Positions 14,593 through 41,835 of a DNA stretch of 64,000 nt are shown piece by piece. The position numbers and the translations under genes are program-made. How positions within the stretch are numbered: the first letter of the stretch is position 1; each line of letters opens with the position of its first letter. Source of the stretch: an uncultured Thermodesulfobacteriota bacterium. Lineage in GTDB: Bacteria; Desulfobacterota; Anaeroferrophillalia; Anaeroferrophillales; Anaeroferrophillaceae. The DNA is taken from positions 2,070 through 66,069 of the forward strand of contig CAYZIS010000009.1 of the NCBI GenBank assembly GCA_964478545.1, written 5' to 3'. The notes below the pieces were generated by a model, which had not been told where the DNA came from, did not search any database, and saw nothing but the letters and a program-made list of their open reading frames with translations.

Positions 14593-14648
14593 AGATTATT
14601 CGTGTAAATTCGTGTCCATTAGTGGTTTCAAAATAAGGAGAATAAAAC

Positions 14649-16277: not shown

Positions 16278-16305
16278 AACCACGGAAAGCTCAAGGAGAT
16301 TCAGC

Positions 16306-16900: not shown

Positions 16901-17039
16901 GCATGAATAGACACGAATAATTAGAACCACGGACGACACGGAAAAACACTGAATTGAAAGCGTTTGATTTTCCGTGCCTTCCGTGCCTTCCGTGCTTTCC
17001 GTGGTTAAAGATGGCCGATAAGCTCAAGGAGATTCAGCG

Positions 17040-17933: not shown

Positions 17934-18053
17934 ACACGAATGCTTAGAACCACGGACGACACGGAAAAACACGGAATTGAGAACGTTTAATCTTCCGTGC
18001 CTTCCGTGCTTTCCGTGGTTAAAAATAGCCGAGAAACTCAATGAGATTCAGCG

Positions 18054-19250
18054 ATGAACAAAAAAGATGCTCTCCCAAAAGGATGGAAAAACATAAAGCT
18101 TAAAAAGCTTGTTACTCAGGAAATCAAGAATGGCTATTCACCCAACTGTCCTGAAGAACCAAACGGGAGTTGGATTCTGGGCTTAGGAAATTTAACCGAA
18201 AACGGGTTTGATCCATCCCAGGCAAAACCAGCTCCCAAAGGTGATAGCAGAGTAAAAGACTTTTTACTTGAACCTGGTGATTTTTTAATTAGTCGATCTA
18301 ACACGTTAGACAAGGTTGGAAGGACAATGTTGTTCAGAGGTGAAATTGAAAACTGCTCTTATCCAGATTTACTCATGAGATTTCGTGTAGATGAAACTTA
18401 GGTTACAAATGAATTTTTGGAGGGGTATTTAAGGAGCTCAGTAGTCAGGAAATACATCCAAGGCTGCGCCTCTGGTACAAGCAACAGCATGGTGAAGATC
18501 AATAAAACAATTGTCGAAAAAATACCTATTGTTTTGCCTCCCCATCCAGAGCAAAAAGCCATTGCCGATTTGCTGTCCACCTGGGATGAGGCCATCGAGA
18601 AAACCGAACGGCTGATTCTGGCGCAGGAGAAGCGGTTTAAACAACTGCTGCGGGAGTTGTTAAGAGAAAAAGTCGAGCTGGGGAAAATTGAATTAGGGAA
18701 GGTTTGTAAGATAACAAAAGGAAAACAGTTAAATATAGCTCATATGAATCGTGATGGTTATTATTATGCCTTAAATGGCGGGATTAAACCATCTGGAAGA
18801 ACTGATGATTGGAACACCAAAGCAGGAACCATAACTATCAGTGAAGGTGGAAACTCATGCGGATATGTAAACTTCAATACACAAAGATTCTGGTCTGGTG
18901 GGCATTGTTATTCACTTCTTAATCTAAAAAAATCTGTAGACTCACACTACCTGTTCTTTTATCTAAAAATGAACGAGCCCAAACTTATGAACTTACGGGT
19001 TGGATCTGGACTCCCCAACATACAAAAGAAAGACGTTGATCGGTTTAAAATATCGATCCCACCGCTCGCAGAACAGCATCAAATAGCCGAGACATTATCC
19101 GCCGCCCAACAGGAAATCAACCTGCTGAAACAGCTTGCAGAAAGATACAAAACCCAGAAACGCGGTCTGAGGCAGAAGATGCTCACGGGCGAATGGCGGG
19201 TAAAACCTGAAATCATTACCCAATATGCGGAAGAGGTGCCATGCAAATAA
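18054..19250 (+). pseudogene. hsdS: Type I RM specificity subunit (two TRDs) interrupted by an in-frame TAG at 18399-18401. Both halves are in the same frame.
   Basis: TRD1 (18054-18398), then TAG, then VTNEF-LEGYLRS..., central conserved region, TRD2, and the C-terminal conserved ISIPPLAEQHQIAETLSAAQQEINLLKQLAERYK. Confidence 0.65.
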
Positions 19251-19840
19251 AGCTTACCTATTACAAACCGCAGACGTTGATCCCGGTTATCGGTCTGCTC
19301 TGGGCTCTTTCATCGTGGGCGCTTTCTAAGCTTTGGGGTTACGGCTTCCTACAAGGCACCGGGCCAACCGCCATCGTGATATTTTTTCTAACAGTCTATG
19401 ACAAGTGGCTGTGGAAATACCCTTTGTTTAACTTAATGAACACAATCCCAAACTTGAACGGCATGTATGAAGGAAAAATATCCTTTCACTGGAACGGACA
19501 GGCTGAATCAAAAGACTGTGAACTAGAAATCAAGCAAACCTGTTCAAACATAAAGGTAAAAACGATTTTCACGAAAGAAGGCGAAAACGATACACAGTCC
19601 GTCAGCACCGAAGCATTCATAAAAACTGACGAGGTTAGCGACCAGCATCTCTATTTTTATTATCGCAGTCGTGGTTCCGGGATGGATGGTGACACTCTTG
19701 ATCAGCACGAGGGTATGAATGTTTTGGAGATTCTGAAGAACAACGGATTGATCCAGCTTGATGGATACTATTTTACCAACCGTAATCCTCAAACAAAAGG
19801 CTGCATGAAAGCTACGAAAACAAACAAAGGAGCTAAATAA
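19241..19840 (+). CDS. Small membrane protein with two N-terminal TM helices and a beta-rich C-terminal domain (Cap15-like or 2TM-type CBASS effector candidate)
   Basis: TM1 is LIPVIGLLWALSSWALSKLW and TM2 is GPTAIVIFFLTVYDKWLWKY, followed by about 130 aa of beta-type sequence. The start overlaps the hsdS stop, and the stop overlaps the next start (TAATG). Confidence 0.4.
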   Translation: MQIKLTYYKPQTLIPVIGLLWALSSWALSKLWGYGFLQGTGPTAIVIFFLTVYDKWLWKYPLFNLMNTIPNLNGMYEGKISFHWNGQAESKDCELEIKQTCSNIKVKTIFTKEGENDTQSVSTEAFIKTDEVSDQHLYFYYRSRGSGMDGDTLDQHEGMNVLEILKNNGLIQLDGYYFTNRNPQTKGCMKATKTNKGAK

Positions 19841-20823
19841 TGGATACACATAAACTGTTCTCTGATTTCGATGCTGTAATTCGACTAAACACCTCAAAAA
19901 TAAGTAAATTAAAAAGCAACCGCACAGCACTCCGCAATAAAATTAAAGATCACTTCAAAAAGAACAACTGGACCGCACCAAAATTCTACTCTCAGGGTTC
20001 CTTCCCTTTGAACACAAACCTAAATCCGATCAAAAAAACTACAAGTGATGGAGATGTTAAAGAAGAGTATGACTTGGATGATGGCGTGTATTTCATCTGC
20101 CCAAAATCAGAGCGCAAAGAGCCAGCGACTTATCATGATCGCATCAAGAAGGCTGTGGATGATCATGCCGAAAGCGTCATAGACAAAACAACCTGTGTTA
20201 GGGTTGTATACATAGATGGACATCACATTGATCTGCCGTCTTATTGGCTTGAAAAGGACGGTAACACACCACAACTTACTCACAAGTCTAAAGGTTTTAC
20301 TGATAGCGACCCGAAAGCTTTTAATGAATGGGTTGATGACAATATTTCCAGAGCCAGTAACAATGGTCAACTCCGCAGAATCATCCGCTACTTAAAGGCA
20401 TGGAAGAATTATCGTGAAAATAGCAACAGTACTCTGGAGCTACCGTCAGGTTTCATTTTAACGATTTTGGCATGCAATCATTTTTCAAAGAACAGCCGTG
20501 ATGATCTATCCTTCAAAGGAACAGTTGAATCTATCAAAAATTCACTAAATTTAAGCTTCACCTGTTATCGTCCAACCGTCCCCACCCATGAGGAGCTTTT
20601 GTTTGATTATTCAAAAGATACAGTAATAAAAGAGCTAACCAGCCTGATCGACAACGCACAGAAAGCGATTGATTCGGATTGTGAGAAAAAAGCGTCTGAA
20701 TTCTGGCACAAAGTGTTTGGGGATCGTTTCCCGTCGGGTAAAGAGAAGGATGAGAAGCCCAAGCAATCTACAGCATCCAACACAACCAGAACAAAGGTCA
20801 GTGCTCCATGGGCATCGTTCTAA
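19840..20823 (+). CDS. cGAS/DncV-like nucleotidyltransferase (CD-NTase, SMODS-domain) candidate
   Basis: Pol-beta NTase signature QGSF...SDGDV...YDLDDG, a later VRVVYIDGHHIDLP (third acidic strand), and a C-terminal helical region RRIIRYLKAWKNY typical of CD-NTases. Length 327 aa. Confidence 0.5.
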   Translation: MDTHKLFSDFDAVIRLNTSKISKLKSNRTALRNKIKDHFKKNNWTAPKFYSQGSFPLNTNLNPIKKTTSDGDVKEEYDLDDGVYFICPKSERKEPATYHDRIKKAVDDHAESVIDKTTCVRVVYIDGHHIDLPSYWLEKDGNTPQLTHKSKGFTDSDPKAFNEWVDDNISRASNNGQLRRIIRYLKAWKNYRENSNSTLELPSGFILTILACNHFSKNSRDDLSFKGTVESIKNSLNLSFTCYRPTVPTHEELLFDYSKDTVIKELTSLIDNAQKAIDSDCEKKASEFWHKVFGDRFPSGKEKDEKPKQSTASNTTRTKVSAPWASF

Positions 20824-21440
20824 CAGAACAAGATAAACAAGAGTTGGCTCAAGATTACCCTGCGCTTAACTGTAGTTTGCCGCGAGGGGTAATCTGGGGA
20901 ACCTTGGAGTTGGCTTGTTCATTCGATGAGTCCGCAAATGAAGTTGTTCATGAAGACTCATTTGATAATTACATCCGCGACTGTTATGAGATACGCGTCG
21001 ATTTCAATCAGGCAGACACTTTTGGTTTTCCCAAAGTGTTCGAGGAGTCGGGAATCATTAGAAATTTTGCGGACAGCAATGGTATCAAGCCAGAAGATTT
21101 GCATGTAAACAAAGATGATGCTGACAGCTGCTGTTTGGGGATCTTCCCTGAATATCATTGGACAGGTGCCGCTTCATTCATACGAGATAAGGTAGTGCCG
21201 TTTTTTTACTGGCAGTCTTATCGACGCTTCTATGAGAAAAAACCATGGAAAGGCTATACACATGGCAACCGTGGCATTGTGGAGGCGATGAGTATGCCTC
21301 TCAATGAATCCTCAAAAGGTCACTCACGTAATAAACGATGCCCATGCGGAAGCGGCCAAAAATACAAAAAATGTTGCATGTCTCGAGATGCGATTCTGCG
21401 AAATAAACTATCCAAATCTATTACATCTCGAAAGAGTTGA
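20808..21440 (+). CDS. UBC/E2-like fold protein with a C-terminal SEC-C metal-binding motif (candidate Cap2-like E2-only accessory)
   Basis: Pattern LAQDYPALNCSLPRGVIWGTLEL...YEIRVDF...FPKVF...LHVNKDDADSCCLGIFPEYHW resembles the UBC fold (an HPN-like HVN plus a catalytic Cys). It ends CPCGSGQKYKKCC. The 5' end overlaps the NTase gene by 16 nt. Confidence 0.35.
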   Translation: MGIVLTEQDKQELAQDYPALNCSLPRGVIWGTLELACSFDESANEVVHEDSFDNYIRDCYEIRVDFNQADTFGFPKVFEESGIIRNFADSNGIKPEDLHVNKDDADSCCLGIFPEYHWTGAASFIRDKVVPFFYWQSYRRFYEKKPWKGYTHGNRGIVEAMSMPLNESSKGHSRNKRCPCGSGQKYKKCCMSRDAILRNKLSKSITSRKS

Positions 21441-21442
21441 TA

Positions 21443-21505
21443 ATGACCAATTTCCAAATAAACGAAAAGCATCTTTCTCAAATCCCTGCGATTTTGAGTT
21501 ATTAG
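21443..21505 (+). pseudogene. Duplicated 5' end of hsdR (20 codons, MTNFQINEKHLSQIPAILSY*) left upstream of the inserted rhuM
   Basis: AAATAAACGAAAAGCATCTTTCTCAA is repeated at 21454-21480 and at 22558-22587 (the true hsdR start MHNFQINEKHLSQLPAV). Confidence 0.5.
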
Positions 21506-21514
21506 GGGTGAGTT

Positions 21515-22555
21515 ATGAATAATGATGGCTTGAAAAACAACTCTGAGCTCATGATCTACCAAACCCCTGATGGGAGTATCAAAATAGATGTCCGCCTTGA
21601 GGATGAAAGCGTCTGGCTGACACAGGCGCATATGGCGAAGCTGTTTCAGGTGAAACCGCAGAATATCACCATGCACCTGAAAAACATCTATGCCGAGGGT
21701 GAACTATCCGAAAAGGCAACTTGTCAGGAATTCTTACAAGTTCAAACCGAGGGTTCCCGTCAGGTTGAACGAAAACGGAAGCTTTACAATCTCGACGCAA
21801 TTATTTCCGTGGGTTACCGTATCCAGTCTCAAGTGGCGACCCACTTCCGCATCTGGGCGACGCAACGACTGAAAGAGTACATTGTCAAAGGCTTTGCGTT
21901 AAACGATGACAGATTCAAAAGTGGTCAATCAATGAACTATTTCACGGAACTGCAGGAACGCATCCGCGAAATTCGGCTCTCCGAGCGGTTTTTTTATCAG
22001 AAGATCAAGGACATCTACACCACCAGCATTGACTATGACCCCAGGGATGAAAAGACGATTGAGTTCTTCAAGATCGTTCAAAACAAGTTGCTTTGGGCGA
22101 TCAGCGAACAGACGGCGGCGGAGCTAATCTATCGTCGCGCGGATGCGGCATTGCCCCTAATGGGAATGCAGTCGTTCGATAAGAAAGGCGTGCCGGTCCG
22201 GAAAGGCGATGTTAACATCGCCAAAAACTATCTTCAGGAAGATGAAATAAAACTGCTGGGGTTACTGGTGGAACAGTATCTTGCCTTTGCCGAAACCATG
22301 GCACAACAGCACACAACGATGTATATGAAGGACTGGATTGGGCGGCTTGATGCCATCATTCAACTGAACGGACGGGAACTGCTCACTCACGCCGGAAAGA
22401 TCAGCCATCAACTGGCGTTGGAGAAATCGGCCCGGGAGTATGAAAAATACCAAGAAACACAAAAGCAACTTCAGCACAAAGAGAGTCTGCGGGAACTGGA
22501 GCAGGATCTAAAGCGGCTCAAAAAACCTGGGCAGGCTGGAGACGGCAATGCATAA
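21515..22555 (+). CDS. rhuM: Virulence protein RhuM family (Fic/DOC-related) protein
   Basis: 346 aa. LMIYQTPDGSIKIDVRLEDESVWLTQAHMAKLFQV...ISVGYRIQSQVATHFRIWATQRLKEYIVKGFALNDDRFK is the RhuM family signature. Confidence 0.8.
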   Translation: MNNDGLKNNSELMIYQTPDGSIKIDVRLEDESVWLTQAHMAKLFQVKPQNITMHLKNIYAEGELSEKATCQEFLQVQTEGSRQVERKRKLYNLDAIISVGYRIQSQVATHFRIWATQRLKEYIVKGFALNDDRFKSGQSMNYFTELQERIREIRLSERFFYQKIKDIYTTSIDYDPRDEKTIEFFKIVQNKLLWAISEQTAAELIYRRADAALPLMGMQSFDKKGVPVRKGDVNIAKNYLQEDEIKLLGLLVEQYLAFAETMAQQHTTMYMKDWIGRLDAIIQLNGRELLTHAGKISHQLALEKSAREYEKYQETQKQLQHKESLRELEQDLKRLKKPGQAGDGNA

Positions 22556-25500
22556 CTTTCAGATAAACGAAAAGCATCTTTCTCAACTTCCGGCGGTGCA
22601 ACTGCTGATATCACTGAGCTATGAATATATTTCTCCGGTTGAAGCGCTCCGTGAACGACAGGGAAGAGTTGCCAATGTCTTGCTGGAAAACATTCTCCGC
22701 AATCAGCTCAAAGAAATCAACCGCATTCGCTACAAAGGAAATGAATATCTGTTTAGCGAGGAAAATGTTCAGTCCGCCATCCAGAAGCTGAAAAACATTA
22801 AATATGACGGTTTGCTGAAAACCAATGAAGCAATTTATGATCTGATCACCCTGGGAACGGCCATGGAGCAGACCATCGAGGGTGATTCTAAAAGTTATAA
22901 TTTGAACTATGTTGACTGGCACAATCCCGGCCGCAACAGATTTCACGTGACGGTTGAATACAGTGTTGAGCGGTCCCGGAGCACCGAGACCACCCGGCCG
23001 GATATTGTCCTCTTTGTTAACGGCATTCCTTTTTGCGTGATTGAATGCAAAGCCCCACAGATTGAAGTTGAACAGGCAGTCTCCCAATCCATTAGAAATC
23101 AGAACGACGACTATATTCCGAAGTTATTCATCTATACCCAGTTGGTTCTGGCATTCAATAAGAACAGCGCGATGTTCGCAACCACCGGAACTGCAGCAAA
23201 GTTCTGGTCCATCTGGAAGGAACCACGAATGGACACAAATAAACACGAATACAATAAATTGAAGAAACTGGTAGATGAGTCTGTTCGTGTTGAAATTGAA
23301 CCCAAATCCTTTGAGATTCACTCAGAGCAAAATATTAGTGAAGATTCGTGTTCATTCGTGGTTTCGAAAGAGCGTTTGGTGACGGAGCAAGACAAAGCCC
23401 TTTTTGCTCTCTGCCGCCCGGAACGCCTGCTGGAACTGGCTTGGAAGTTCATTGTTTTTGATGGCGGCATTAAAAAGATTGCCCGCTATCAACAGTATTT
23501 TGTCATCAAGTCCACTCTGAACCGGATCAAGCATTTTGACCGTAACGGTTCCCGCAAGGGCGGTGTTATCTGGCACACGCAGGGGTCAGGGAAATCCCTG
23601 ACCATGGTGATGCTGGCCCGGAATCTGGCCTTGGATCCGGAGATATTGAATCCTCGCATTGTTCTGGTCACCGACCGGGATGATTTGGACAAGCAGCTGG
23701 GTAATACTTTTGCCGCCTGCGGACTGGAAGCCAATCGGGCAACATCGGGAAGAAATCTGCTGGAGTTGGTAGCTGAAAAAAACTCCGGCATTATCACCAC
23801 GCTCATTCATAAATTCGACAAGGCTTACGCGGTAAGAAAATACCAGGATAAATCCCCCGACATTTTCATTCTTGTGGATGAAAGCCACCGTACCCAGTTC
23901 GGCTCGTTTTCCGCCCGTATGCGCCAGATGTTTCCCCATGCCTGCTATCTGGGATTTACAGGTACTCCGTTGCTGAAAAAAGAGAAAAACAACTTCACCA
24001 GGTTCGGAGAACTAGTGGAGCCGCATTACTCCATTTCACAGGCGGTAGAAGACGGCGCGGTCGTTCCACTCTTGTATGAAGGACGGCATGTGGAGATGAC
24101 CCAGAACAAGGCTGCTGTGGACCTCTGGTTCGAGCGTCATACCCAAGGCTTGAGCAAAGAACAGCAGGCGGACCTGAAACGTAAATATGCTCGGGCGGAA
24201 ATGCTGAACAAGGCTTATCAGGTCATTTACATGAGGGCCTTTGATATCAGTGAACACTTTCGGGCTAATTGGCAGGACACCGGGTTCAAGGCACAACTGG
24301 TCGCGCCAAATAAGGCTTCGGCGCTTAAATACCATGCGTATTTGAATGACATCGGCATGGTCAGTTCGGAAGTTGTTATTTCCCCTCCGGATATGCGTGA
24401 AGGCTATGAAAAGACGGACGATGAAACGACTGATGACGTGGTAAGGTTCTGGCAGAAAATGGTGAAACGCTATGGCAGCAAGGAGGAGTATACCAAGCAG
24501 CTCATCAACCAGTTTAAACACGGGAGCGATCCCGAAATCCTTATTGTCGTCGATAAGCTCTTAACCGGCTTTGACGCGCCAAGAAACGCGGTACTTTATT
24601 TATGCAGGGTTCTCAGGGAACATTCGTTGCTTCAGGCTATCGCGCGGGTTAACCGGATCCATGAAGGCAAGGAGTTCGGTTTTATCGTCGATTATGCAAA
24701 TGTTCTTGGTGAGCTGGATAAAGCGCTGACCATGTATAGCGCGTTTGAGGGTTTCGACGAATCGGATCTTGTCGGTACTCTTACTTCCATCAACAGCGAA
24801 ATTGAAAAACTGCCGGGGCGCTATTCGGATTTATGGGATTTCTTTAAGTCGGTAAAGCATTCTTATGATGAAGAGGCATACGAGGTTTTGCTTGCTGATG
24901 ATGAATTAAGGGAAGAGTTTTATAGTCGTCTTTCTGAATTTGGTAAAAACCTCGGTATCGCTCTTTCTTCTGAAAAGTTTTTGTCTGAGACAGATGAAAA
25001 AACTCTGTCCAGATACAAGGCTGATCTCCGGAAATTCCAATCGCTTAAGGCATCTGTCAAGTTGCGCTATGCTGAAGCTATTGATTACCGGGATTATGAG
25101 CCGAAAATCAAGAAGCTGCTGGATACCCATATTCAAGCCAATGAGGTTATCCAGCTCAACGAGCCGGTTAACATCTTCGATGACAAAATGTTCAATCAGG
25201 TAAAAGAGGAGCAAGGAGTTTATCAAACCAGGAAAACCACGGCCTCCAAAGCCGATATGATTGCTCACGCAACGAAAAAAGTGATTACGGAAAAAATGTT
25301 CGAAGACCCTGCTTTTTACGAAAAATTTTCAAAGCTGATCCAGCGGGCTATTGAAGATTTCAGAGCAAAAAGAATATCGGATCTGGATTATCTCAATAAA
25401 GTCGTTGAGGTCAGGAATAAAGTCGTCGGCAAGGTTCATGATGATGTTCCTGATAAACTTTCCGGCAATGAAGATGCCATGGCCTATTATGGGATACTGA

Positions 25501-25769
25501 AACCGTTCCTCGAAAATAACAAATTGAATGAAGAAGACCTTGAAGCTGCCACCGCAGATACGGCCATCGCTCTAAACGGTATTTTGGAAAAACACAAAAA
25601 AGTTCATTTCTGGGATGATGAGGATGCCCAGAAGCAAACGGTTAATGAGATTGACGATTACCTCTATGATGAACTTAAAACAGAAAGAGGTATCGAACTG
25701 TCGCTGGATCAGATGGATGACATCATTGAAAAGGTTCTGCAGGTGGCGAAACACCGGAGTTACAAATGA
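22548..25769 (+). CDS. hsdR: Type I RM restriction subunit HsdR (SF2 helicase/nuclease). It contains a 147-bp in-frame palindromic insertion at 23219-23365.
   Basis: QGSGKSLTMV (Walker A), VDESHR (DEAH box), and an N-terminal PD-(D/E)XK region (DIVLFVNGIPFCVIECK). Length 1073 aa. Confidence 0.9.
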   Translation: MHNFQINEKHLSQLPAVQLLISLSYEYISPVEALRERQGRVANVLLENILRNQLKEINRIRYKGNEYLFSEENVQSAIQKLKNIKYDGLLKTNEAIYDLITLGTAMEQTIEGDSKSYNLNYVDWHNPGRNRFHVTVEYSVERSRSTETTRPDIVLFVNGIPFCVIECKAPQIEVEQAVSQSIRNQNDDYIPKLFIYTQLVLAFNKNSAMFATTGTAAKFWSIWKEPRMDTNKHEYNKLKKLVDESVRVEIEPKSFEIHSEQNISEDSCSFVVSKERLVTEQDKALFALCRPERLLELAWKFIVFDGGIKKIARYQQYFVIKSTLNRIKHFDRNGSRKGGVIWHTQGSGKSLTMVMLARNLALDPEILNPRIVLVTDRDDLDKQLGNTFAACGLEANRATSGRNLLELVAEKNSGIITTLIHKFDKAYAVRKYQDKSPDIFILVDESHRTQFGSFSARMRQMFPHACYLGFTGTPLLKKEKNNFTRFGELVEPHYSISQAVEDGAVVPLLYEGRHVEMTQNKAAVDLWFERHTQGLSKEQQADLKRKYARAEMLNKAYQVIYMRAFDISEHFRANWQDTGFKAQLVAPNKASALKYHAYLNDIGMVSSEVVISPPDMREGYEKTDDETTDDVVRFWQKMVKRYGSKEEYTKQLINQFKHGSDPEILIVVDKLLTGFDAPRNAVLYLCRVLREHSLLQAIARVNRIHEGKEFGFIVDYANVLGELDKALTMYSAFEGFDESDLVGTLTSINSEIEKLPGRYSDLWDFFKSVKHSYDEEAYEVLLADDELREEFYSRLSEFGKNLGIALSSEKFLSETDEKTLSRYKADLRKFQSLKASVKLRYAEAIDYRDYEPKIKKLLDTHIQANEVIQLNEPVNIFDDKMFNQVKEEQGVYQTRKTTASKADMIAHATKKVITEKMFEDPAFYEKFSKLIQRAIEDFRAKRISDLDYLNKVVEVRNKVVGKVHDDVPDKLSGNEDAMAYYGILKPFLENNKLNEEDLEAATADTAIALNGILEKHKKVHFWDDEDAQKQTVNEIDDYLYDELKTERGIELSLDQMDDIIEKVLQVAKHRSYK

Positions 25770-26494
25770 TGGAGGCTGCAATTCATAACGATAAACGCTC
25801 GCTTGTTTATGGGCGCAAGACCATTGATTACAGTCTTTTCTATTGCGATAGAAAAACGATGGAAATTGCGGTTCATCCTGACAGTACCGTCATTGTCAAA
25901 GCACCGATCGACTCCGATATTTCGTTGATCGAGAAAAAGTTAAATAAAAGAGGACGATGGATTTTCAGACAGTTGAACTACTTCAGGCAGTTTAATCCCA
26001 AAACACCTGATCGATGCTATGTGAATGGTGAAACCCACCTGTATCTTGGAAAGCAATATCGCTTAAAACTGACGGAGGGCTCAGAAAATTCAGTAAAGCT
26101 GGTCCGGGGCTTTTTTTATATTACCTGCCGTGATGTACCAAGCCCGGCAACAGCCAAAAAGCTTTTGCACAAGTGGTATTTGGAAAAGGCGGCCAGGCAA
26201 TTCAAAGAAAGCATGGATCGCTGCTGGCAAAAATTCTCCAACTTCGATTTTAGCAAACCCAATTTATCGATCAAACGAATGCAAAAAAGATGGGGCAGCC
26301 TTTCAGAAAAAGGAACGGTGACACTCAATACCGATCTGATCAGAGCACCCAAGGAATGTATTGAGTACGTTGTAACCCACGAACTGTGCCATTTGAAATA
26401 TCGTAATCACAGCCCCGAATTTTATAAGCTGCTCGATTCTGTTATCCCCGGCTGGGAAAAGATAAAACACAGACTTGAACTCAGTATGATGTGA
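25766..26494 (+). CDS. M48/YgjP-like zinc metallopeptidase (DUF45), commonly co-encoded with hsdR
   Basis: HELCHLKYRNH is an HExxH motif. Length 242 aa. The start overlaps the hsdR stop. Confidence 0.6.
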   Translation: MMEAAIHNDKRSLVYGRKTIDYSLFYCDRKTMEIAVHPDSTVIVKAPIDSDISLIEKKLNKRGRWIFRQLNYFRQFNPKTPDRCYVNGETHLYLGKQYRLKLTEGSENSVKLVRGFFYITCRDVPSPATAKKLLHKWYLEKAARQFKESMDRCWQKFSNFDFSKPNLSIKRMQKRWGSLSEKGTVTLNTDLIRAPKECIEYVVTHELCHLKYRNHSPEFYKLLDSVIPGWEKIKHRLELSMM

Positions 26495-28026: not shown

Positions 28027-28428
28027 TTACCCAGACATTACTTTGACGTAATATGTCCTTTTACGTGGACCATCAAACTCAGCGAAATAAACATCCTGCC
28101 AGGTTCCCAACACCAACCGACCGTCCTGAACCAGCAGGGTTTCAGCAAAACTAAGCAGGCTGGCCTTCAAGTGAGCATCTGAATTTCCTTCCAAGTGATG
28201 ATAATCACCTCGTTGGGGAATCAAGCTGGCAAGTTTGGTCAGGATATCCCGTTTGACGCTGGGATCAGCATTCTCATTGATGGTTACTGCGGCAGTGGTA
28301 TGGGGCACAAATACCACACAAAGACCATCATTAATTCCTGATTCCTTCAGGTCAGCCGAAATAGTCCCAGTTATATCTAGCAATTCATTTCGCGATTGCG
28401 TCTGGATTTCATGGTGATATAAAGGCAT
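28027..28428 (-). CDS. yjbQ: YjbQ/UPF0047 family protein (secondary thiamine-phosphate synthase-like)
   Basis: TGTISADL...GLCVVFVPHTTAAVTINENADPSV...HLKASLLS family motifs. Length 133 aa. Confidence 0.7.
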   Translation of the reverse strand: MPLYHHEIQTQSRNELLDITGTISADLKESGINDGLCVVFVPHTTAAVTINENADPSVKRDILTKLASLIPQRGDYHHLEGNSDAHLKASLLSFAETLLVQDGRLVLGTWQDVYFAEFDGPRKRTYYVKVMSG

Positions 28429-28621: not shown

Positions 28622-29053
28622 TTACAATACAGCCTCAATCTGCTTGACAAATGGCTCAACCGCAGCTTTCAGCTTGGCCATTATCGGCGTCTGTTTGATT
28701 TTTAATCCATCAACAACCATGTTCATCTGGAGAAGATTTCTCATCGTATCTTCCAAAATCCCCAAAGACTCGCCGCTCCAGCCGAAAGAAGCGAAAGCCG
28801 CTCCCGGTTTTCCTTCAAGCTTGGCATCCGCAACCTTGAGTAAAAAGGTTTTCATCGGACCGATAAGATCTTTATGGTAGGTCGGCCCTCCCAACATCAA
28901 AAAATCAGCCGCTTCCATATCCGCTACCGTGACCTGGGCCGGTTTAGACACCGTAACCTGATGACCACTTCCTGTCAGCATTTGTCCGGCAAGATCAGCT
29001 ATCTTCTTAGTCCCGCCACGCAGGGAATCATAGACAATCAGAACTTTAGCCAT
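28622..29053 (-). CDS. Flavodoxin
   Basis: MAKVLIVYDSLRGGTKKIA is a flavodoxin FMN-phosphate loop. Length 143 aa. Confidence 0.8.
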   Translation of the reverse strand: MAKVLIVYDSLRGGTKKIADLAGQMLTGSGHQVTVSKPAQVTVADMEAADFLMLGGPTYHKDLIGPMKTFLLKVADAKLEGKPGAAFASFGWSGESLGILEDTMRNLLQMNMVVDGLKIKQTPIMAKLKAAVEPFVKQIEAVL

Positions 29054-29300: not shown

Positions 29301-29591
29301 CTATTCAACAACTTTCACTACCAGGTGCTGTTTCAAATAATTCAGGACAATCAGCTGATCGACCTTGGACAGTTCTCCCTCGGCATGCTCGCCCATTCTG
29401 GTGACAATTTCTTCCCATTCGGATGCCGTTCGGTGATGTTCAAGAATGACATCCACCTCATGACAGGCCACGCATTTTTTATCCAGAACCGTTTCTTCCT
29501 GGGCCAAGGCAGGAAATACCGGCAATAATCCACCAATTAACAATCCTGTCACGATCAGGGGAACAAATATTTTTGCGATTATTTTAGGCAT
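29301..29591 (-). CDS. Monohaem c-type cytochrome with a signal peptide (the start MPKIIAKIF is internal to the track ORF)
   Basis: Signal-anchor LIVTGLLIGGLLPVFPALA, then CVACHE (CxxCH). The mature protein is about 70 aa. Confidence 0.5.
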   Translation of the reverse strand: MPKIIAKIFVPLIVTGLLIGGLLPVFPALAQEETVLDKKCVACHEVDVILEHHRTASEWEEIVTRMGEHAEGELSKVDQLIVLNYLKQHLVVKVVE

Positions 29592-30072
29592 CCCAAGTCC
29601 ACATTCCCTTATTGTTAATATCATAAAACTGGTCTTGAAGAATCCTGGCATGATCCGCCTCTTCACTGGCCAGACGATTGAACATGGCCATTCCTTGAGG
29701 ATCATCGACTTCCGCTGCCAGCTTTTTATAAGCCTCACCGGCATTTTTCTCATTTTTGATTGCCAAACTCAAAATTTCGGAAACCTTTGTTTTTTCATCA
29801 GCGGAAACCTCTAAGATCGCCCCTTCAAGAGGAATCGGCTTAAAGGAAGTTCCGTCATAGGAGATAAAGCAACCCTCACCGGATAAAGTCTGTTTCAGCT
29901 CAGTCAGGATATCATAATGACCCTGTTCAAACTCACTCAACTGCAGAAACATTTGTTTACCTTTGGCTCCGCTGACTTTTTTTGCGGCATCGGCATAAAA
30001 CCGGCTGGCCGTCTGTTCAGCATCCATTGCCAAATCAATGGCATCCATAACCGTCTTGTTGCATTCCACCAT
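29584..30072 (-). CDS. Rubrerythrin/ferritin-like diiron four-helix-bundle protein (no rubredoxin-like tail)
   Basis: E...ExxH pairs (EQTASRFY, EFEQGHYD, NEKNAGEAY, EEADHARI). Length 162 aa. Confidence 0.6.
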   Translation of the reverse strand: MVECNKTVMDAIDLAMDAEQTASRFYADAAKKVSGAKGKQMFLQLSEFEQGHYDILTELKQTLSGEGCFISYDGTSFKPIPLEGAILEVSADEKTKVSEILSLAIKNEKNAGEAYKKLAAEVDDPQGMAMFNRLASEEADHARILQDQFYDINNKGMWTWDA

Positions 30073-30552: not shown

Positions 30553-32046
30553 TTATTTTTTAACTTGGCCAATAGCCAGCAGATAAAGGAGACTGGCCTG
30601 ATCCGGCATCCCGATAAGCTCGATTGCTTCCCGGTCATAAAAAGCGCCGATGCCGCAGCAACCCAATCCCAAAGCCGTGGCCCCCAGGTAAAGACGCTGC
30701 CCCAGGCGGCCGGCGGCCAGCATAACCTCACGATACCCCCGGGATCCGGCACAATTTTCAATCTCCACCAGATCGGCAAAAAGGATGACATGGATGGCCG
30801 CCTGTGCCAGCCAGCGCTGGTCCAGACAGGCATGGGACATATGGCCAAGAAAATTCCCGGCAGTCACCAGCGCCAGGGACCGGGTATCTGATTTTACAGC
30901 ATAAAAACCCGGCTCCATTTCAGCAACGTTGTCCACCAACAGGCCACAGGATAACCCTTTGGCAGCGAGAGAACATGATTCAAACCCCTCGTTCACCAAA
31001 GAAATGATTAAGCTCAAGCTGGCTGCTGACATGGGCTCACGGATGATAAAATTGCGTTTTGAGCGCCGATGGAGCAAAACTTCAGGATAACGGTAGACTT
31101 CGTTCGCCGGCACTGGAGGTGGGGGGATGGACTTCCAGGAATTTTCATCAATCAACCCGTACCTGAGCCAATCACCGACCCGACACTCCTGGTGAGGCAC
31201 AACCTTTGTCGATGCCTGATGGATATTCCTGACCGCATCATACATCTTTTCCCGGGTCGCCACCCGACTAGAGCAGGGCAACTCTCCAGCCGATTCCAAC
31301 GGATCAACGGTTTCAACGCCCACAGGATTACAGAGAGGAACCTTAACCAGCGCCAGGCAGCCTTCACGCAGGGGATCAAACCCCAGCATTTCATTAACCT
31401 GGTAATCATCAAAATCGATATTCAATTCATAAACAGAAGAGAAGGCCCCCAAGGCAAGGAGCAGGTTTTCCAGCAAATGGCCGCTATCCAGCAGATGATA
31501 ACGGTACGCCCGGTCCCGATATTTCCAGGTACTGCGAAAAAAGATGGCACTGACCAGAAAGGTCAGCATGGGCGTTCCCGAGGCTTTGTTGCCGCCGCCC
31601 AGTTCCAGCATCGGGTTTCCGGACCTCATCAAGACCAACGCCGGCTTGCTGACATCATAATGGTAAATCCCGGCAGCTAAGCCAGCGACACCAGGGCAGG
31701 TAACATATAGTTCACAGGGATACAGGGCCCCGGCTGAAGCAATACTGCGAAACCAGATTTCACTGTTGGCATGCTGAGCCCGGCCAGTCAGCATTTGCGT
31801 CAGCAACAGTAATTGTCCCAGAACTTCAAAGGAAAGGGAAAGATTTTGCGCCTGATTTTCCTGCTGCTGCAACAGCTTGAAGAATGATGACGGCTCTAAT
31901 TTCACCTCTAAAGGAATATCCAGCACCTTTTTGCCGGGATATTTTTTATAGACCACCGGCTCATGCTTCCAGTCAAGGGTATGAGGGGCCATCTTCAGAC
32001 GCTCATAGCTGCTGAGCTGTTGGTAATCAAAAGCTGAATATTTCAT
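30553..32046 (-). CDS. SagB/ThcOx-type dehydrogenase (tandem nitroreductase-fold domains)
   Basis: 497 aa. Two nitroreductase-like halves with an RSxR-type FMN-binding segment (RRSKRNF). Confidence 0.55.
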   Translation of the reverse strand: MKYSAFDYQQLSSYERLKMAPHTLDWKHEPVVYKKYPGKKVLDIPLEVKLEPSSFFKLLQQQENQAQNLSLSFEVLGQLLLLTQMLTGRAQHANSEIWFRSIASAGALYPCELYVTCPGVAGLAAGIYHYDVSKPALVLMRSGNPMLELGGGNKASGTPMLTFLVSAIFFRSTWKYRDRAYRYHLLDSGHLLENLLLALGAFSSVYELNIDFDDYQVNEMLGFDPLREGCLALVKVPLCNPVGVETVDPLESAGELPCSSRVATREKMYDAVRNIHQASTKVVPHQECRVGDWLRYGLIDENSWKSIPPPPVPANEVYRYPEVLLHRRSKRNFIIREPMSAASLSLIISLVNEGFESCSLAAKGLSCGLLVDNVAEMEPGFYAVKSDTRSLALVTAGNFLGHMSHACLDQRWLAQAAIHVILFADLVEIENCAGSRGYREVMLAAGRLGQRLYLGATALGLGCCGIGAFYDREAIELIGMPDQASLLYLLAIGQVKK

Positions 32047-35893: not shown

Positions 35894-36724
35894 TCAGGAT
35901 AACTCATCCTTCATTTCCAGTAATCTTAGGGCTGTCTTTTCACCCAGGAAAACCAGGGATTCAATATCCAGGTAACAAAGCACCGTTGCATCAAACAAAA
36001 TTTTTACTTTTGCCGGAAAGCCATCATCACGATCCTCATCCCAGTAATAGAGCAGGAAAGGAATCTTTGGCAGGGGATGAAACACCGCATGAAACTCGGC
36101 ATTGGTTTCCATGGGCGGCGAGGATGCCCCCAACTTCAAAAGCACCTCATTCAACTCTTCCATTCGGCCGGTGAAGGCCGCGGCAATTTCATCTTCACAT
36201 CCTTCTTCGAAGGCTTTTTTCTTGGCCAGAGCTCCCGGCAGCTCACCCATGGCAACCCAATTTCCTTTCAACGGTTCCCGGCAGGCCTGGGCAATATAAT
36301 TGTATAACAGGACGTGCTCCCAGACATCATATTCGCAGCCATCAAGGGGAATAGCCTCATTCTTATTCACCGCGTATTGGTGTCCCAGGAGCGTAATCAC
36401 CAGTGATCCCTTACCCTCCTGCAGGAAAAACTCTGCCCCCAGAAAAGGAGCCAGCTCTCTCAAGTCATACTCCTGGATTTTGCTGATGACATGCTTTTTA
36501 GCGCTGACAAAATGTTCAGGAAATGCTGTTACCCCTCCTGCTTCCTGCTCTTTCAAGATCGCCTCCACCCGGGCCAGTTTCTGCGGTTCAAAATGTGGGC
36601 AGGATGACGGTGCCACCCCTTCCCGCAGCACGTGGGTGGCGAAAGCCATACAGGTGAGGTAGCCGCAATCACCGCAGTTGGTCCGCGGCAGCATTTTCAA
36701 AAGTTCTAAAATCTGTAGAGCCAT
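35894..36724 (-). CDS. DUF3786 protein with an N-terminal corrinoid-Fe-S-protein-like [4Fe-4S] domain
   Basis: LPRTNCGDCGYLTCMAFATHV matches the putative Fe-S cluster domain of CFeSP/AcsC N-termini. The probable start is MALQILELL. Confidence 0.5.
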   Translation of the reverse strand: MALQILELLKMLPRTNCGDCGYLTCMAFATHVLREGVAPSSCPHFEPQKLARVEAILKEQEAGGVTAFPEHFVSAKKHVISKIQEYDLRELAPFLGAEFFLQEGKGSLVITLLGHQYAVNKNEAIPLDGCEYDVWEHVLLYNYIAQACREPLKGNWVAMGELPGALAKKKAFEEGCEDEIAAAFTGRMEELNEVLLKLGASSPPMETNAEFHAVFHPLPKIPFLLYYWDEDRDDGFPAKVKILFDATVLCYLDIESLVFLGEKTALRLLEMKDELS

Positions 36725-36781
36725 CTCACATCCCAACTGATTTATTTAAAAACCATAGGTAAAAAAAGACAGTATGAATTT

Positions 36782-38839
36782 TTAAGAGTCCAGCGCCTGT
36801 CGTAGTTCATCTGCATCGGTAATTGCCGACTGGCAGGCGAACTGTTCACACAGGAAAGCTCTTGCCTGTCCATCTCCCGCCGGCAGGGTTTGCAAAAAGG
36901 GAATCAGCTGGGCCAAAGCCTTTCTTTTTTCATCTGCAGGGCAAAAAACCGTCACCAGGGAGGGATGAAATTGCCGTTGGGCAATGTGAAGCATCTCCCT
37001 GGCCAGGGGTTCATCCTCCGCTTCAATCACCAGTTCCCGCCCGGGACCGAGGAGAAAATCAAGCACCGAAAGTAAATGGGTAACTGCTTCAGGATGAGTT
37101 GCAGTAACAGTCAGGCTGGATTGAATCACTCGTTCACCCCGTTCTTCAAATTCCGTCTTACCGGTCAAACGACCAAGATACAAAAGGACATACGCCGCCA
37201 CTGAATTACTAGCCGGAATTGCGCCATCCACCTGTTCAACCGGACGAACGAGAAGCTGCTCCCCGTCGTTGCCAGTAAAGAAGAATCGGCCATTAGAGTC
37301 GTCCCAGAACAGTTCATTCATTTTATCAGTAAGTGCCAAGGCTTTTTCAAGCCAGCGAGGTTCATGGGTTGTAGTAAATAATTCCGCCAATCCCCAAACC
37401 AGAAACGCATAATCATCAAGACAGCCGTGATGTTCGGCTTCTCCTTGGCAGAATCGACGCCATAAACCACCATCCGGACGTTGAAGTTGGGCAAGCAGAA
37501 AATCCGCCGCGTTTTGGGCCAGCCTGATATATTCCTGCTGTCCAAAGGCCCTGCCGGCCCTGGCCAGGACGGCAATCATCAATCCATTCCATGAGGTGAT
37601 GATTTTGTCATCTTTCAAGGGATGAACCCGTTGCTCACGAATACGGAATAAACTCTTGCGGGCTTTTTCCAGCTCCGCTTTTACCTCTTCCTCCGGCCGT
37701 TGTTCAGCCTCGGAAAACGCTGATAAACTGGCGGTCAGGTGGAGAATACTGGTCCTTTTTTCAAAATTTCCAGCCGCGGTTATATTGAAATAACGGCAAA
37801 ATAATTCACCGGTTTCCACCCCAAGATGTTCTTTGATTTCCGCCGGAGTCCAGACATAAAAACATCCTTCTTCCCCTTCGCTATCGGCATCTTCAGCGGT
37901 ATAAAAAGCCCCTTCAGGAGAAGCCATAGATCCGGCCAGGTAATTGACTATTTCTTTGACGACCTGAGAATAAAAAGTTTTGCCAGTCAATTGCCAGGCT
38001 TCCGTATAGACCATGAGCAGCATTGCCTGGTCATAGAGCATCTTCTCAAAATGGGGAACTAGCCATTTTTCATCGACAGAATAGCGGTGGAAACCAAAAC
38101 CAATCTGGTCAAACAGCCCCCCGTAACGGATACTCTCGAGAGTTTTCTCCACCATCTCCAAGGCCTGGCGGTCACCGCTGCGCCGGTACCAGCGGAGCAG
38201 GAAGGTTAAATTATGGGCAGTGGGAAATTTGGGAGCAGAGCCAAAGCCACCATGCCGGCGGTCATAGTTTTCCTGCAGATGCTGAAAAGCTTTTTCCATC
38301 AACCGGGCATCAGCAGTCACAGACGGAGACAATTGTACTTCCATTCCCTGTAGCAGACTGGTCACCTGATCACCGGTCTGGAGGAGTTTGTGCCGATCAT
38401 GCTGCCACAAACGGGCCATATGCTGCAACAGGTCGATAAAACCCGGCATTCCCATCCGGCGGTGCCGGGGGAAGTAGGTCCCGGCAAAAAACGGCTTGCC
38501 TTCAGGGGTCATAAAAACAGACAGGGGCCAACCACCACGCCCGGTCAATGCCTGACAGGCAATCATATAGATCTGATCAATATCCGGCCGCTCTTCACGG
38601 TCCACTTTAATGGGGACAAACCACTGGTTCAACAGTGATGCAATCTCGTCGTTCTCAAAAGATTCATGGGCCATGACGTGGCACCAGTGGCAGGTGGAAT
38701 AACCCACCGAAAGAAAAATTGGTTTATCCTCCTTCCGGGCTTTCTGCAGGGCTTCCTCTCCCCAGGGGTACCAATCCACCGGGTTGTCGACATGTTGAAG
38801 CAGGTAGGGACTTTTTTCATTCTCAAGATGGTTGGCCAT
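36782..38839 (-). CDS. yyaL: Thioredoxin-domain protein YyaL (DUF255 plus six-hairpin glycosidase-like fold). The start is taken at MANHLENEK, and the longer track ORF extension overlaps a repeat element.
   Basis: [44 protein letters not shown] is the DUF255 thioredoxin-like N-terminus. Length about 685 aa. Confidence 0.7.
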
Positions 38840-38887
38840 GGTCTCCCCGATAACTGGGTGTGAAAAATAAGCAGGGGGTTTGGGCGG

Positions 38888-39030
38888 GATGCCCGCAACC
38901 CAAAAGAAATTTTCTGAGGATGTTCCGGCATGGCTCTTGCTCATTCTTGCCGGCTGTCCATGGCCTGCCTGTCGGCAGACACGGCTGCGAGCCAAGCCCG
39001 AACATCCTGAAATGTATTCCCGGCAATACC
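38888..39030. repeat. Palindromic repeat element, family B copy 1 (about 145 nt)
   Basis: CGCAACCCAAAAGAAATTT..GGATGTTCCGGCATGGCTCT.GCTCATTCT.GCCGG...GAGCCAAGCCCGAACATCCTGAAATG.ATT.CCGGCAAT. Shared with 50115-50169 and 51968-52133. Confidence 0.6.
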
Positions 39031-39050
39031 AGGAAGAAAATTGAAGCAGC

Positions 39051-39296
39051 TTATAAGCCGGCTGCTGCCAACATTTTATCAATTTCCTGGGGATTGAAGC
39101 CAACCCGGTGATCTTCACCAATGACAACCACGGGAACTTGACGTTTGCCGGAAATATCAACCATTTCCTTTAGGGCTCGAGGATTTTCACGCACATCAAA
39201 CACTTCATAATCGACCTCTTTTTGCGAAAGATACTCTTTCGCTGTCTGGCAATGGGGTCAGGTGGAGAGGGAATAAATTTTTACGGTTACAGCCAT
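39051..39296 (-). CDS. Glutaredoxin/NrdH-like selenoprotein with an in-frame UGA (Sec) at the UxxC redox site
   Basis: [84 protein letters not shown] is at 39258-39260, exactly where the first Cys of CxxC sits. A stem-loop lies 14 nt downstream. Confidence 0.65.
39225..39243 (-). promoter_or_regulatory. Candidate bacterial SECIS hairpin for the Grx-like selenoprotein
   Basis: GCGAAAGA-GUA-UCUUUCGC is an 8-bp stem with a G-containing apical loop, 14 nt downstream of the UGA. Confidence 0.4.
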
Positions 39297-39321
39297 AGCA
39301 ACACCTCACAGATTTTCAAGG

Positions 39322-39510
39322 TTATCCCAACCGGGGATCAACGCCGGTAAAATTGCATTCAGGAGCATAACAGGTCACGTTGCTGAATTCACATTTCTTA
39401 TGGCAGGAAGGGCATGCCTCCGGTGGTTCCAGAGCCTTGAGCGTATAGCCGCAGGCAGAACACTTCCAATAGCTTTTTGGCATTTCCGGCTGTTTTTCAG
39501 TCATTATCAT
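39322..39510 (-). CDS. Rubredoxin-like/zinc-ribbon small protein
   Basis: WKCSACGY...CPSCH gives two CxxC knuckles about 12 residues apart. Length 62 aa. It lies adjacent to ferritin. Confidence 0.4.
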   Translation of the reverse strand: MIMTEKQPEMPKSYWKCSACGYTLKALEPPEACPSCHKKCEFSNVTCYAPECNFTGVDPRLG

Positions 39511-39547: not shown

Positions 39548-40057
39548 CTACTTTCCGCTGGCCGGCATGGTAAAAGCCCTGACCCCAAGTTCCTGGTCCA
39601 GCATGAAAATGGCATTGCCCTGGTTGCCCACCAGTTTCAATTTCTGCACAATTTCATCGGCGGAAGCTTCTTCCTCCACCTGTTCAGTAACAAACCACTG
39701 GAGAAAGATATTGGAAGCATGGTCTTTTTCCTCAATGGCAATATCCATCAGGTCATTGATCCGGCCGGTGATATACTGTTCATGTTTGTACGCCGCCTCG
39801 AAGGCTTCCAACGGGCTTTCCCAAACCATTTCAGGGCTATCGATCTGGGTCAGAGTGACCCGCCCGCCACGCTCGATAATAAAATCATAAATCTTCATGG
39901 CATGAACCATCTCTTCGGTAGCCTGAACTTTCATCCATTGGGCAAAACCGGAAAAATTCATCTCGGAAAAGCTCGAAGATATAGACAAATAAAGATAAGC
40001 GGAAAAAATTTCTGCATTAATCTGGTCATTTAAAGCCTTTTCAATTTGTTCTTTCAA
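39548..40057 (-). CDS. ftn: Ferritin (bacterial non-haem Ftn)
   Basis: Ferroxidase-centre residues (EIFSAYLY, EEMVHA, EQYITG...). Length 169 aa. Confidence 0.8.
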   Translation of the reverse strand: MKEQIEKALNDQINAEIFSAYLYLSISSSFSEMNFSGFAQWMKVQATEEMVHAMKIYDFIIERGGRVTLTQIDSPEMVWESPLEAFEAAYKHEQYITGRINDLMDIAIEEKDHASNIFLQWFVTEQVEEEASADEIVQKLKLVGNQGNAIFMLDQELGVRAFTMPASGK

Positions 40058-41403: not shown

Positions 41404-41835
41404 ATGAGGATTGATACCATGGTTTACCAACAGACATTGACACTCCAAACTCACGGACACCGCGATCTCCATGACCTGACCAAAAACATCAGTGAGATCG
41501 CCAAAAATTCCGGGATAATGACGGGTACAGCGCATATATTTAATATCGGCAGTACGGCCGCCGTGGGCACCATTGAATTTGAACCGGGTCTCCAGCAGGA
41601 CCTGCCGGACATCCTGGACAAGCTCATGCCCCCCAACCGCAGCTACGGTCATGAACAAACCTGGCATGACGGCAACGGGCACTCCCACCTGCAGGCTACC
41701 CTGCTCGGCTCCTCCCTGACCGTCCCCATCCAGGAAGGCAAGTTGATCTTAGGAACCTGGCAGCAGATCTTCCACCTGGAATGCGACATCAAACCCCGCC
41801 AGCGCCAGATCATGGTCACCGTGATGGGTGAGTGA
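41404..41835 (+). CDS. yjbQ: YjbQ/UPF0047 family protein (second copy)
   Basis: Same family motifs as the 28027 gene (TGTAHIFNIGSTAAVGTIEFEPGL, HLQATLLG). Confidence 0.7.
   Translation: MRIDTMVYQQTLTLQTHGHRDLHDLTKNISEIAKNSGIMTGTAHIFNIGSTAAVGTIEFEPGLQQDLPDILDKLMPPNRSYGHEQTWHDGNGHSHLQATLLGSSLTVPIQEGKLILGTWQQIFHLECDIKPRQRQIMVTVMGE

Follow-up and report, generated by a model that had tools for sequence, protein, structure and literature searches.

Does an in-frame TGA at the active site of a small glutaredoxin gene bring translation to an end, or is it read as selenocysteine (Sec)? The gene in question lies on the minus strand at positions 39051-39296 of a 64-kb stretch of contig CAYZIS010000009.1, from an uncultured Thermodesulfobacteriota bacterium, which is referred to below in its full length of 64,000 nucleotides as the window. 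An earlier interpretation, made from the letters of this DNA without database searches and called here the sequence-only reading, had proposed that the gene encodes a selenoprotein. The comparisons described here lead us to a firm answer in the same direction, namely that the locus very probably encodes an 81-residue glutaredoxin-like thiol/selenol-disulfide oxidoreductase of the YruB/glutaredoxin (Grx) type, with a thioredoxin fold and with Sec13 of a T-U-P-H-C motif as its predicted catalytic nucleophile.

An open reading frame that continues past TGA

The open reading frame (ORF) starts at an ATG (39296-39294) and closes at a TAA (39053-39051), with 12 codons before the TGA and 68 after it, i.e. 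81 in all, the last residues before the TAA being AAAGL. The TGA itself is codon 13 (39258-39260, minus strand), stands in a UGAC context and aligns with the first Cys of the CxxC motif in Cys-containing homologues. Direct reading of the sequence upstream of the start reveals a Shine–Dalgarno-like GAGGTG (39302-39307, minus strand), whose GAGG core (39307-39304) is separated from the ATG by a 7-nt spacer, and equivalent AGGAGG and AGGGG motifs are found 5′ of the Grx ATG in two homologous loci from metagenome-assembled genomes, L001 and L002. When Cys is allowed to stand in for Sec at the TGA codon, the read-through product matches the Pfam glutaredoxin model PF00462 with E = 6.3e-19 and 68.4 bits (cutoff 22.9), covering profile positions 1-59 of 60. 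The minus-strand frame from ATG 39296, with its TGA at 39260-39258 and its TAA at 39051, is thus as the sequence-only reading had described it, and the Pfam match agrees with its claim that read-through gives a complete glutaredoxin-like protein of 81 residues.

It had also been said that standard ORF finders would miss this gene, and this is what they do. Mechanical ORF finding at the locus recovers just a GTG-start ORF of 50 residues (39051-39203), while public gene calls for the exact same gene consist either of the 50-residue fragment (P0157, P0162) or of a table-4-style translation with W at the TGA (P0001). A word-indexed protein search returned proteins of 99% and 84% identity, again with ‘W’ at the TGA, together with fragments of 50-58 residues that begin past it. 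The fragments P0157 and P0162 have been placed in one 90%-identity cluster with unrelated 416-residue ‘ankyrin repeat’ proteins, e.g. P0158, which looks like a clustering artefact of the protein collection.

At the other end of the gene, a weak terminator-like site overlaps the Grx stop codon. A 792-residue TTG-start ORF for a DUF255/YyaL thioredoxin-domain protein (36782-39160, minus strand) reaches into the Grx gene at its 3′ end, though in a different frame; it was rejected in this long form as an over-extension, because the Pfam match starts at residue 1 of the ATG-38827 start.

Cysteine or TGA at codon 13

An exhaustive HMMER search of 1.84 billion protein representatives yielded 1106 relatives of the read-through protein, and the top 150 of these were examined at the active site. 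Most of the 150 have CxxC at the aligned position and six have WxxC; in the DNA encoding these six, the ‘W’ is a TGA in every case, with a conserved Grx domain after it. In Wukongibacter, a member of the Clostridia (L003), the codon that aligns with the putative Sec codon is TGT. The proposal that the TGA falls where the first Cys of the CxxC motif should be is therefore supported both by the protein representatives and by this Cys codon.

The TGA is found at the same codon, with both flanks conserved, in L001 and L002, which encode proteins of 90% and 84% identity, and it is likewise kept at codon 13 in L004-L019, with coding conservation on either side. Among the matches listed from a scan of metagenome contigs (described below), the 36 TGA loci have the β-1 strand encoded 5′ of the TGA and a full Grx domain 3′ of it. 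The sequence-only reading was to be abandoned if all homologues stopped at the TGA or showed no conserved sequence after it; at least nine distinct lineages outside the metagenome scan, in addition to the listed metagenome loci, carry the TGA with conserved Grx sequence beyond it. Both parts of the classic Sec/Cys test thus speak for recoding, because homologues have either Cys at this codon or TGA with a conserved Grx domain after it.

These comparisons bear directly on the possibility that the TGA is a genuine stop and the locus a pseudogene or split gene, producing a 12-residue peptide or, separately, a 50-residue protein from GTG 39203. Standard gene callers give exactly this 50-residue ORF, and other genes of the window use TGA as a normal stop. 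We nevertheless regard a genuine stop as very improbable, since the TGA and both its flanks are conserved in dozens of lineages, in proteins that are down to 24-50% identical, where a pseudogene would decay. A ribosome-binding site precedes ATG 39296, and the 50-residue fragment is without strand β-1, helix α-1 and the active site, all of which align in solved structures. Finally, as set out below, the hairpin that follows the TGA is selected only where the TGA is present.

A candidate selenocysteine insertion element

Downstream of the TGA lies a hairpin (39224-39242, minus strand) that has the features of a bacterial selenocysteine insertion sequence (bSECIS), as judged by RNAfold, by published criteria and by comparative tests. 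Its 8-bp stem, GCGAAAGA/UCUUUCGC, encloses a GUA triloop (39234-39232), and the whole structure lies within the codons for A-K-E-Y-L-S-Q, with 15 nt from the A of the TGA to the first stem base and the loop 23 nt after the UGA. It is predicted by RNAfold whether 63 or 151 nt of sequence are folded. The stem-loop that had been predicted here, GCGAAAGA-GUA-UCUUUCGC, is accordingly present, and only its spacing needs a trivial correction, from 14 to 15 nt.

PMC13188914, in summary of the Zhang & Gladyshev model, describes a bSECIS as having an apical loop of 3-9 nt, a stem of 4-16 bp and a G in the first two loop positions, with a UGA-to-loop distance of 16-37 nt and a minimum free energy (MFE) of -7.5 kcal/mol or lower. 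The window hairpin agrees with all of these: the loop is 3 nt long (GUA) and begins with G, the upper stem has 8 bp, the spacing is 23 nt and the MFE is -8.6 kcal/mol when the hairpin is folded alone and -10.1 kcal/mol with flanks. The suggestion that it is compatible with a bacterial SECIS, with a G in the apical loop, is in keeping with these values. By themselves the criteria are weak evidence, and it is the comparative evidence that carries the argument; the window has 2654 TGA triplets, and by chance a hairpin that agrees with them follows 77 of these (2.9%). When the same peptide was re-encoded with synonymous codons, only 0.3% of encodings folded as well as the natural sequence (-10.1 versus -2.6 ± 1.7 kcal/mol) and 0.17% reached 8 bp.

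Like the fdhF-type bSECIS of Escherichia coli, the window element lies inside the coding sequence directly after the UGA, and has a G followed by a U at the opening of its apical loop. It differs in being a minimal form, with a perfect 8-bp stem and a 3-nt loop at the lower size limit, and in having neither a bulged U nor a conserved lower stem.

Selection on the hairpin in TGA-bearing genes

Because the AAAGA/UCUUU part of the stem is partly dictated by the amino acids K-E-Y-L, a controlled comparison was made between genes with TGA and genes with TGY at codon 13. Metagenome contigs were scanned with the degenerate DNA pattern TGH CCN CAY TGY N6 GCN AAR GAR TAY YT, corresponding to [U/C]-P-H-C-x-x-A-K-E-Y-[L/F], which located at least 119 loci (L020-L138). 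All usable matches are in Grx-like ORFs, and the 103 that are listed comprise 36 with TGA and 67 with TGY; the sequence counts in this section likewise refer to the matches listed.

The TGA class is represented by 35 unique 63-nt sequences, 28 of which form the full 8-bp stem and four a 7-bp stem, with a mean local MFE of -9.1 kcal/mol. Of 76 unique 63-nt sequences in the TGY class, one forms the full 8-bp stem and none a 7-bp stem, and the mean local MFE is -2.4 kcal/mol. A hairpin of at least 7 bp is therefore found in 32/35 TGA sequences versus 1/76 TGY sequences, and the two classes differ with p = 5e-12 for MFE and p = 8e-16 for contiguous pairs (Mann–Whitney).

The wobble positions of the codons involved show where this difference arises. 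In the stem, the third base of the Ala codon (GCN) is G in 33 and A in two of the TGA sequences, versus C 48, A 15, T 7 and G 6 in the TGY class; that of the Tyr codon (TAY) is T 34 and C 1 versus T 46 and C 30; and that of the Leu/Phe codon (YTN) is T 34 and A 1 versus C 30, G 19, T 15 and A 12. The Glu codon (GAR), which provides the G of the loop, ends in G 32 and A 3 times in TGA genes and in A 45 and G 31 times in TGY genes, while the Lys codon (AAR), at a stem position where A and G can both pair with U, has A 25 and G 10 versus G 57 and A 19. Outside the hairpin, the corresponding counts are C 22, T 5, G 4 and A 4 versus G 24, C 23, T 22 and A 7 for Pro (CCN), C 21 and T 14 versus C 41 and T 35 for His (CAY), and C 18 and T 17 versus C 54 and T 22 for Cys (TGY). 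The codon after Leu is TCG in 32/35 TGA sequences versus 2/76 TGY sequences. In the TGA class, then, the stem wobble bases are fixed to the pairing base and the Pro, His and Cys wobbles a few nucleotides upstream are randomised; in the TGY class all stem wobble sites vary.

Phylogenetic controls point the same way. The hairpin is absent from four loci (L085, L029, L070 and L038) whose Cys-type proteins share 70-84% identity with a Sec-type neighbour, while both members keep it in 233 of 315 Sec-type pairs at 50% identity or below, and the hairpin is nearly invariant among listed TGA-class proteins whose pairwise identity goes down to 24% (median 51%). The hairpin is under selection specifically in TGA-bearing genes. 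Even in divergent TGA genes with other peptides at this site, L016 (131-190), L017 (870-929) and L018 (213-272), a 6-7-bp hairpin is found at an unchanged offset, its register being shifted by 1-2 nt and its loop being AGUU or GAAUA rather than GUA. Together with that of L092, these shifted-register hairpins are other structural solutions for one and the same site.

Among the matches listed, one TGY sequence alone has an intact hairpin, namely L043 (BARW01006269.1, pattern at 901-932, minus strand). This is a Cys-type Grx gene with TGT at codon 13, 92% identical to the Sec-type L110, which retains the complete 8-bp GCGAAAGA-GUA-UCUUUCGC structure; it would seem to have exchanged Sec for Cys recently, with the SECIS left behind as a fossil. 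Such fossil elements after Sec-to-Cys conversion are reported for other families in PMC1794560.

Several results weigh against the selenoprotein interpretation. With regard to the hairpin, dinucleotide shuffling of the 63-nt segment gives a modest z of -1.8, and the AAAGA/UCUUU part of the stem is favoured by the K-E-Y-L codons themselves. The canonical hairpin is missing in three of the 35 listed TGA sequences (L041, L116 and L092), of which L092 (880-939) forms one in a shifted register. Classical covariation was absent among 43 TGA sequences, in which the stem is near-invariant, one double change occurs and shuffle controls are not exceeded, the test being uninformative because the upper stem hardly varies. 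A conserved lower stem, in which the UGA would pair with a downstream GGUC/GGGG, was rejected as it pairs in only 56% of cells. As to the protein, its score against TIGR02196, considered below, is 4 bits under the cutoff of that model. As to the decoding machinery, selA, selB and selD were found neither in the 64-kb window, in a Pfam survey of essentially all ORFs of at least 110 residues, nor in the approximately 9 kb past its right edge, where the extra sequence of an overlapping 81-kb ENA contig holds chemotaxis and signalling genes only.

Some of these points would fit a hairpin that is no SECIS at all, being instead a by-product of A-K-E-Y-L-S coding or an unrelated mRNA element: K-E-Y-L codons are inherently partly self-complementary, compensatory covariation is lacking and the shuffle z is low. 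Such a coincidence is, however, scarcely credible when only one of the 76 listed Cys-type sequences encoding the identical peptide forms the hairpin, that one resembling a recent Sec-to-Cys convert, when so few synonymous encodings fold as well, when the wobble positions are fixed to the pairing base in TGA genes only, and when L016, L017 and L018 keep a hairpin at the same offset with other peptides and in shifted registers.

Selenium genes and the genetic code of the window

The sequence-only reading had drawn attention to a tRNA-Sec and a yedE/yedF selenium cluster in the window, and both were recovered. The tRNA-Sec gene (selC; 925-1013, minus strand), with anticodon UCA, was called by ARAGORN and by Rfam RF01852 (52 bits; gathering score 47), and it is the only Rfam match at the gathering threshold in the whole window. 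The selenium-handling cluster (2202-4087, minus strand) consists of a YedE-family putative selenium transporter (2996-4087; TIGR04112, 494.8 bits versus a cutoff of 200), a TusA/YedF-like gene of 72 residues (2762-2980), seen as an ORF in the window and identical to a gene of L139 for which a PF01206 TusA match is recorded, and a DUF3343 Se/S-carrier gene (2202-2759; PF11823, E = 1.1e-23), all on the minus strand. YedE, YedF and DUF3343 have been tied to selenium metabolism by comparative genomics (PMC9312934).

Between this cluster and the tRNA-Sec lies a carbohydrate-kinase or NAD(P)H-hydrate-dehydratase-like gene (1351-2214, minus strand; weak matches to PF01256, 47 bits, and TIGR00196, 40 bits), which shares sequence with the DUF3343 gene at the latter's end. 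Some 2 kb away from the YedE cluster, and separated from it by response-regulator and MgtC genes, a cluster on the plus strand (5860-10030) encodes a pyridoxal-phosphate enzyme (PALP), NifU, a class-V aminotransferase of the NifS/cysteine-desulfurase type and a hexapeptide transferase; its NifS-like enzyme could in principle act as a selenium mobiliser.

TGA terminates 10 of the 29 Pfam-supported genes in the window, and the genetic code is therefore the standard one and the Grx TGA a recoding site. That the UGA is instead read as a standard amino acid (Trp, Cys or Gly), through an alternative code or near-cognate read-through, is hardly conceivable, for although some public pipelines place W at this codon (P0001, P0002, P0020 and others) and UGA followed by C is a leaky context, the TGA-terminated genes exclude codes 4 and 25, a CxxC redox protein would lose its activity if Trp or Gly took the place of the catalytic Cys, the window has a dedicated tRNA-Sec and a hairpin matching the SelB-binding consensus is kept specifically downstream of the TGA.

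When the window was scanned for further selenoprotein genes with an in-frame TGA and a C/U redox motif, no credible candidate emerged. The candidates lay in overlapping alternative frames, were upstream stops or were without a hairpin, and the TGA at 14320 is a stop before a downstream ORF.

Proposed decoding and catalysis

If the gene is decoded by the known bacterial pathway, a ribosome reaching the UGA at 39260-39258 would meet the GUA-triloop hairpin inside the coding sequence, with the loop 23 nt on. SelB carrying Sec-tRNA(Sec), the tRNA being supplied from 925-1013, would bind the hairpin and, competing with release factor 2, deliver Sec, after which translation would run on for 68 codons past the UGA to the TAA. 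By homology to the Clostridium enzyme cGrx1, described in the next section, the selenolate of Sec13 would attack a disulfide or a sulfenic acid as its oxidised substrate, and Cys16 would resolve the intermediate, giving an intramolecular Se-S bond from which an upstream reductant would regenerate the Grx.

Relationship to known glutaredoxins

The top NCBIfam match of the protein is TIGR02196, the YruB-family glutaredoxin-like model, with 84.6 bits versus a cutoff of 88.55 over profile positions 1-73 of 74. From this Cys-type family the window protein differs by having Sec at the place of the first Cys. The sequence-only reading had labelled the protein glutaredoxin/NrdH-like, of which the first half stands, through PF00462, and the second does not. 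Both NrdH models score below cutoff (TIGR02194, 56.1 versus 85.75 bits; PRK10329, 38.8 versus 131 bits), and an nrdEF context was not found either, the neighbours being ferritin, a rubredoxin-like protein and DUF255, with no ribonucleotide reductase gene nearby. The best fit is the YruB/Grx type. The UXX-star models also remain under their cutoffs (NF041212, subfamily, 65.4 versus 66 bits; NF041114, family 1, 57.5 versus 72 bits) and match over profile positions 1-65 of 70 only. Membership of these families, which need a C-terminal U-x-x-stop, was rejected, as the window protein ends in AAAGL-TAA without a C-terminal TGA.

Solved structures can be aligned with nearly the whole protein, residues 5-76 with Archaeoglobus Grx-1 (3IC4) and residues 1-77 with 7C10, in both cases with the CPHC motif of the structure on U13-P-H-C16. 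The V-P motif that contains the cis-Pro is nearly invariant at V54 and P55 in our homologue alignment (A1). The second structure is of particular interest: 7C10 is cGrx1 of Clostridium oremlandii, which is natively a selenoprotein, has U(or C)PXC at its active site and was crystallised with Sec replaced by Cys (PMC7642778), and the mutant name U13C/C16S (PMC4479559) places its Sec at residue 13 and its resolving Cys at residue 16.

The window protein resembles cGrx1 (C. oremlandii is Clostridium sp. OhILAs; PDB 7C10/7C12/7C13) in being a small single-domain Grx of about 80 residues that aligns with it end to end (38% identity over 77 residues, E = 1e-17), in having the T-U-P-H-C motif with Sec13 and Cys16 at identical positions, and in sharing the V-P (cis-Pro) and V-G-F motifs, the latter standing where classical Grx proteins have a GG-x-DD type motif. 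Clostridial-type TGA relatives from the metagenome scan also carry a GCGAARGA-GUA-UCUUUCGC hairpin, as the window gene does. The differences are that identity is only 38%, that the genome of the window gene is of Gram-negative type and has genes for multihaem cytochromes and chemotaxis, and that the window gene lies behind a ferritin and a rubredoxin-like gene, with no MsrA partner gene seen within the window.

Sec-containing glutaredoxins are not new as such. PMC13188914 and PMC9312934 treat the UxxC glutaredoxin as an experimentally verified prokaryotic selenoprotein family, and PMC1794560 catalogued Sec-Grx in 2006 from Geobacter sulfurreducens, Alkaliphilus and Moorella. The window protein shares with the Grx selenoproteins of Deltaproteobacteria and Clostridia (e.g. 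WP_010943784.1 of G. sulfurreducens) the PF00462 domain, the UxxC motif and an anaerobic, Sec-using host, as well as a gene that is usually mis-annotated owing to the in-frame UGA. No mention of the ferritin/rubredoxin-like synteny of the window gene occurs in the accessible parts of PMC1794560, PMC9312934 and PMC13188914. The window gene, which comes from an uncultured lineage, is a new and divergent member of this known Sec-Grx family; it does not represent a new type of element.

Genomic neighbourhood and possible role

The Sec-Grx gene is the last of three genes on the minus strand, in the order ferritin, rubredoxin-like protein and Sec-Grx, with gaps of 37 and 25 nt. The ferritin gene (39548-40057; PF00210, E = 1.8e-45) comes first, followed by a gene for a rubrerythrin-type rubredoxin-like protein of 62 residues (39322-39510; PF21349, E = 1.8e-8), which ends 25 nt 5′ of the Grx start and is probably in one operon with it. 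The TIGRFAM description reportedly derives the YruB name from a rubredoxin operon, which would parallel the rubredoxin-like neighbour here.

All three genes are called in L004 and L012, a ferritin gene also stands 5′ of Grx in L005, L006 and L009, and in L001 and L002 a homologous C-terminus of the rubredoxin-like protein is seen 5′ of the Grx gene. In L004-L008 the trio is followed by genes for DUF3786, nitroreductase, rubrerythrin, rubredoxin and flavodoxin. The window has DUF3786 (35894-36736), a few kilobases past Grx, and further on a nitroreductase (30553-32046), a rubrerythrin-like protein (29584-30072) and a flavodoxin (28622-29053), with genes for the DUF255 thioredoxin-domain protein, a cytochrome P460 and a 2-oxoacid:ferredoxin oxidoreductase inserted between them. 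A conserved trio among oxidative-stress genes points to an oxidative-stress or redox-repair duty, and on the strength of this synteny the role of the Sec-Grx is likely to be redox repair or oxidative-stress defence in an anaerobe. Two YjbQ/UPF0047 paralogues lie near the redox gene clusters, at 28027-28428 (minus strand) and 41404-41835 (plus strand).

A more far-reaching and, in our judgement, rather doubtful proposal joins two ideas: that the ferritin/rubredoxin-like/Sec-Grx trio is a dedicated selenium-dependent module, and that the A-K-E-Y-L-S helix is a pre-adapted SECIS. On the first idea, the rubredoxin-like protein, and not glutathione, could be the redox partner of the Sec-Grx, e.g. 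in iron release from ferritin or in oxidative-stress repair. On the second, the codons AAAGA-GUA-UCUUU are self-complementary as they stand, and the outer pairs would need only a few more base choices, mostly at wobble positions. A pre-adapted SECIS would, if real, explain repeated Cys-to-Sec and Sec-to-Cys switching in the Grx family.

Annotation and occurrence of Sec-type glutaredoxins

Current understanding of Sec decoding and of glutaredoxins is unchanged by this gene, the practical value of which is one of annotation. It is present in public collections only as a fragment of 50-58 residues or as a mistranslated ‘W’ protein, and as a consequence the organism, an uncultured anaerobe, has its redox and selenium biology under-reported. 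The near-invariant 19-nt GCGAARGAGUAUCUUUCGC, 15 nt after TGACCN, could offer a simple and specific search key for the Sec-Grx family. TGA forms make up about one third (36/103) of the usable exact-peptide matches listed. Anaerobic metagenomes may hold Sec-type Grx more often than is suggested by the ‘limited number of species’ of a 2026 review.

Other features of the window

Elsewhere in the window, the plus-strand region 13630-26494 contains the type I restriction-modification genes HsdS, HsdM and HsdR, among which genes with RhuM and Bro-N domains are scattered, an arrangement suggestive of a defence island or a mobile one. Also on the plus strand, a 356-residue ORF without a Pfam match (10287-11357) lies directly 5′ of a multihaem cytochrome gene (11395-12741), a pair that is called on L139 as well.

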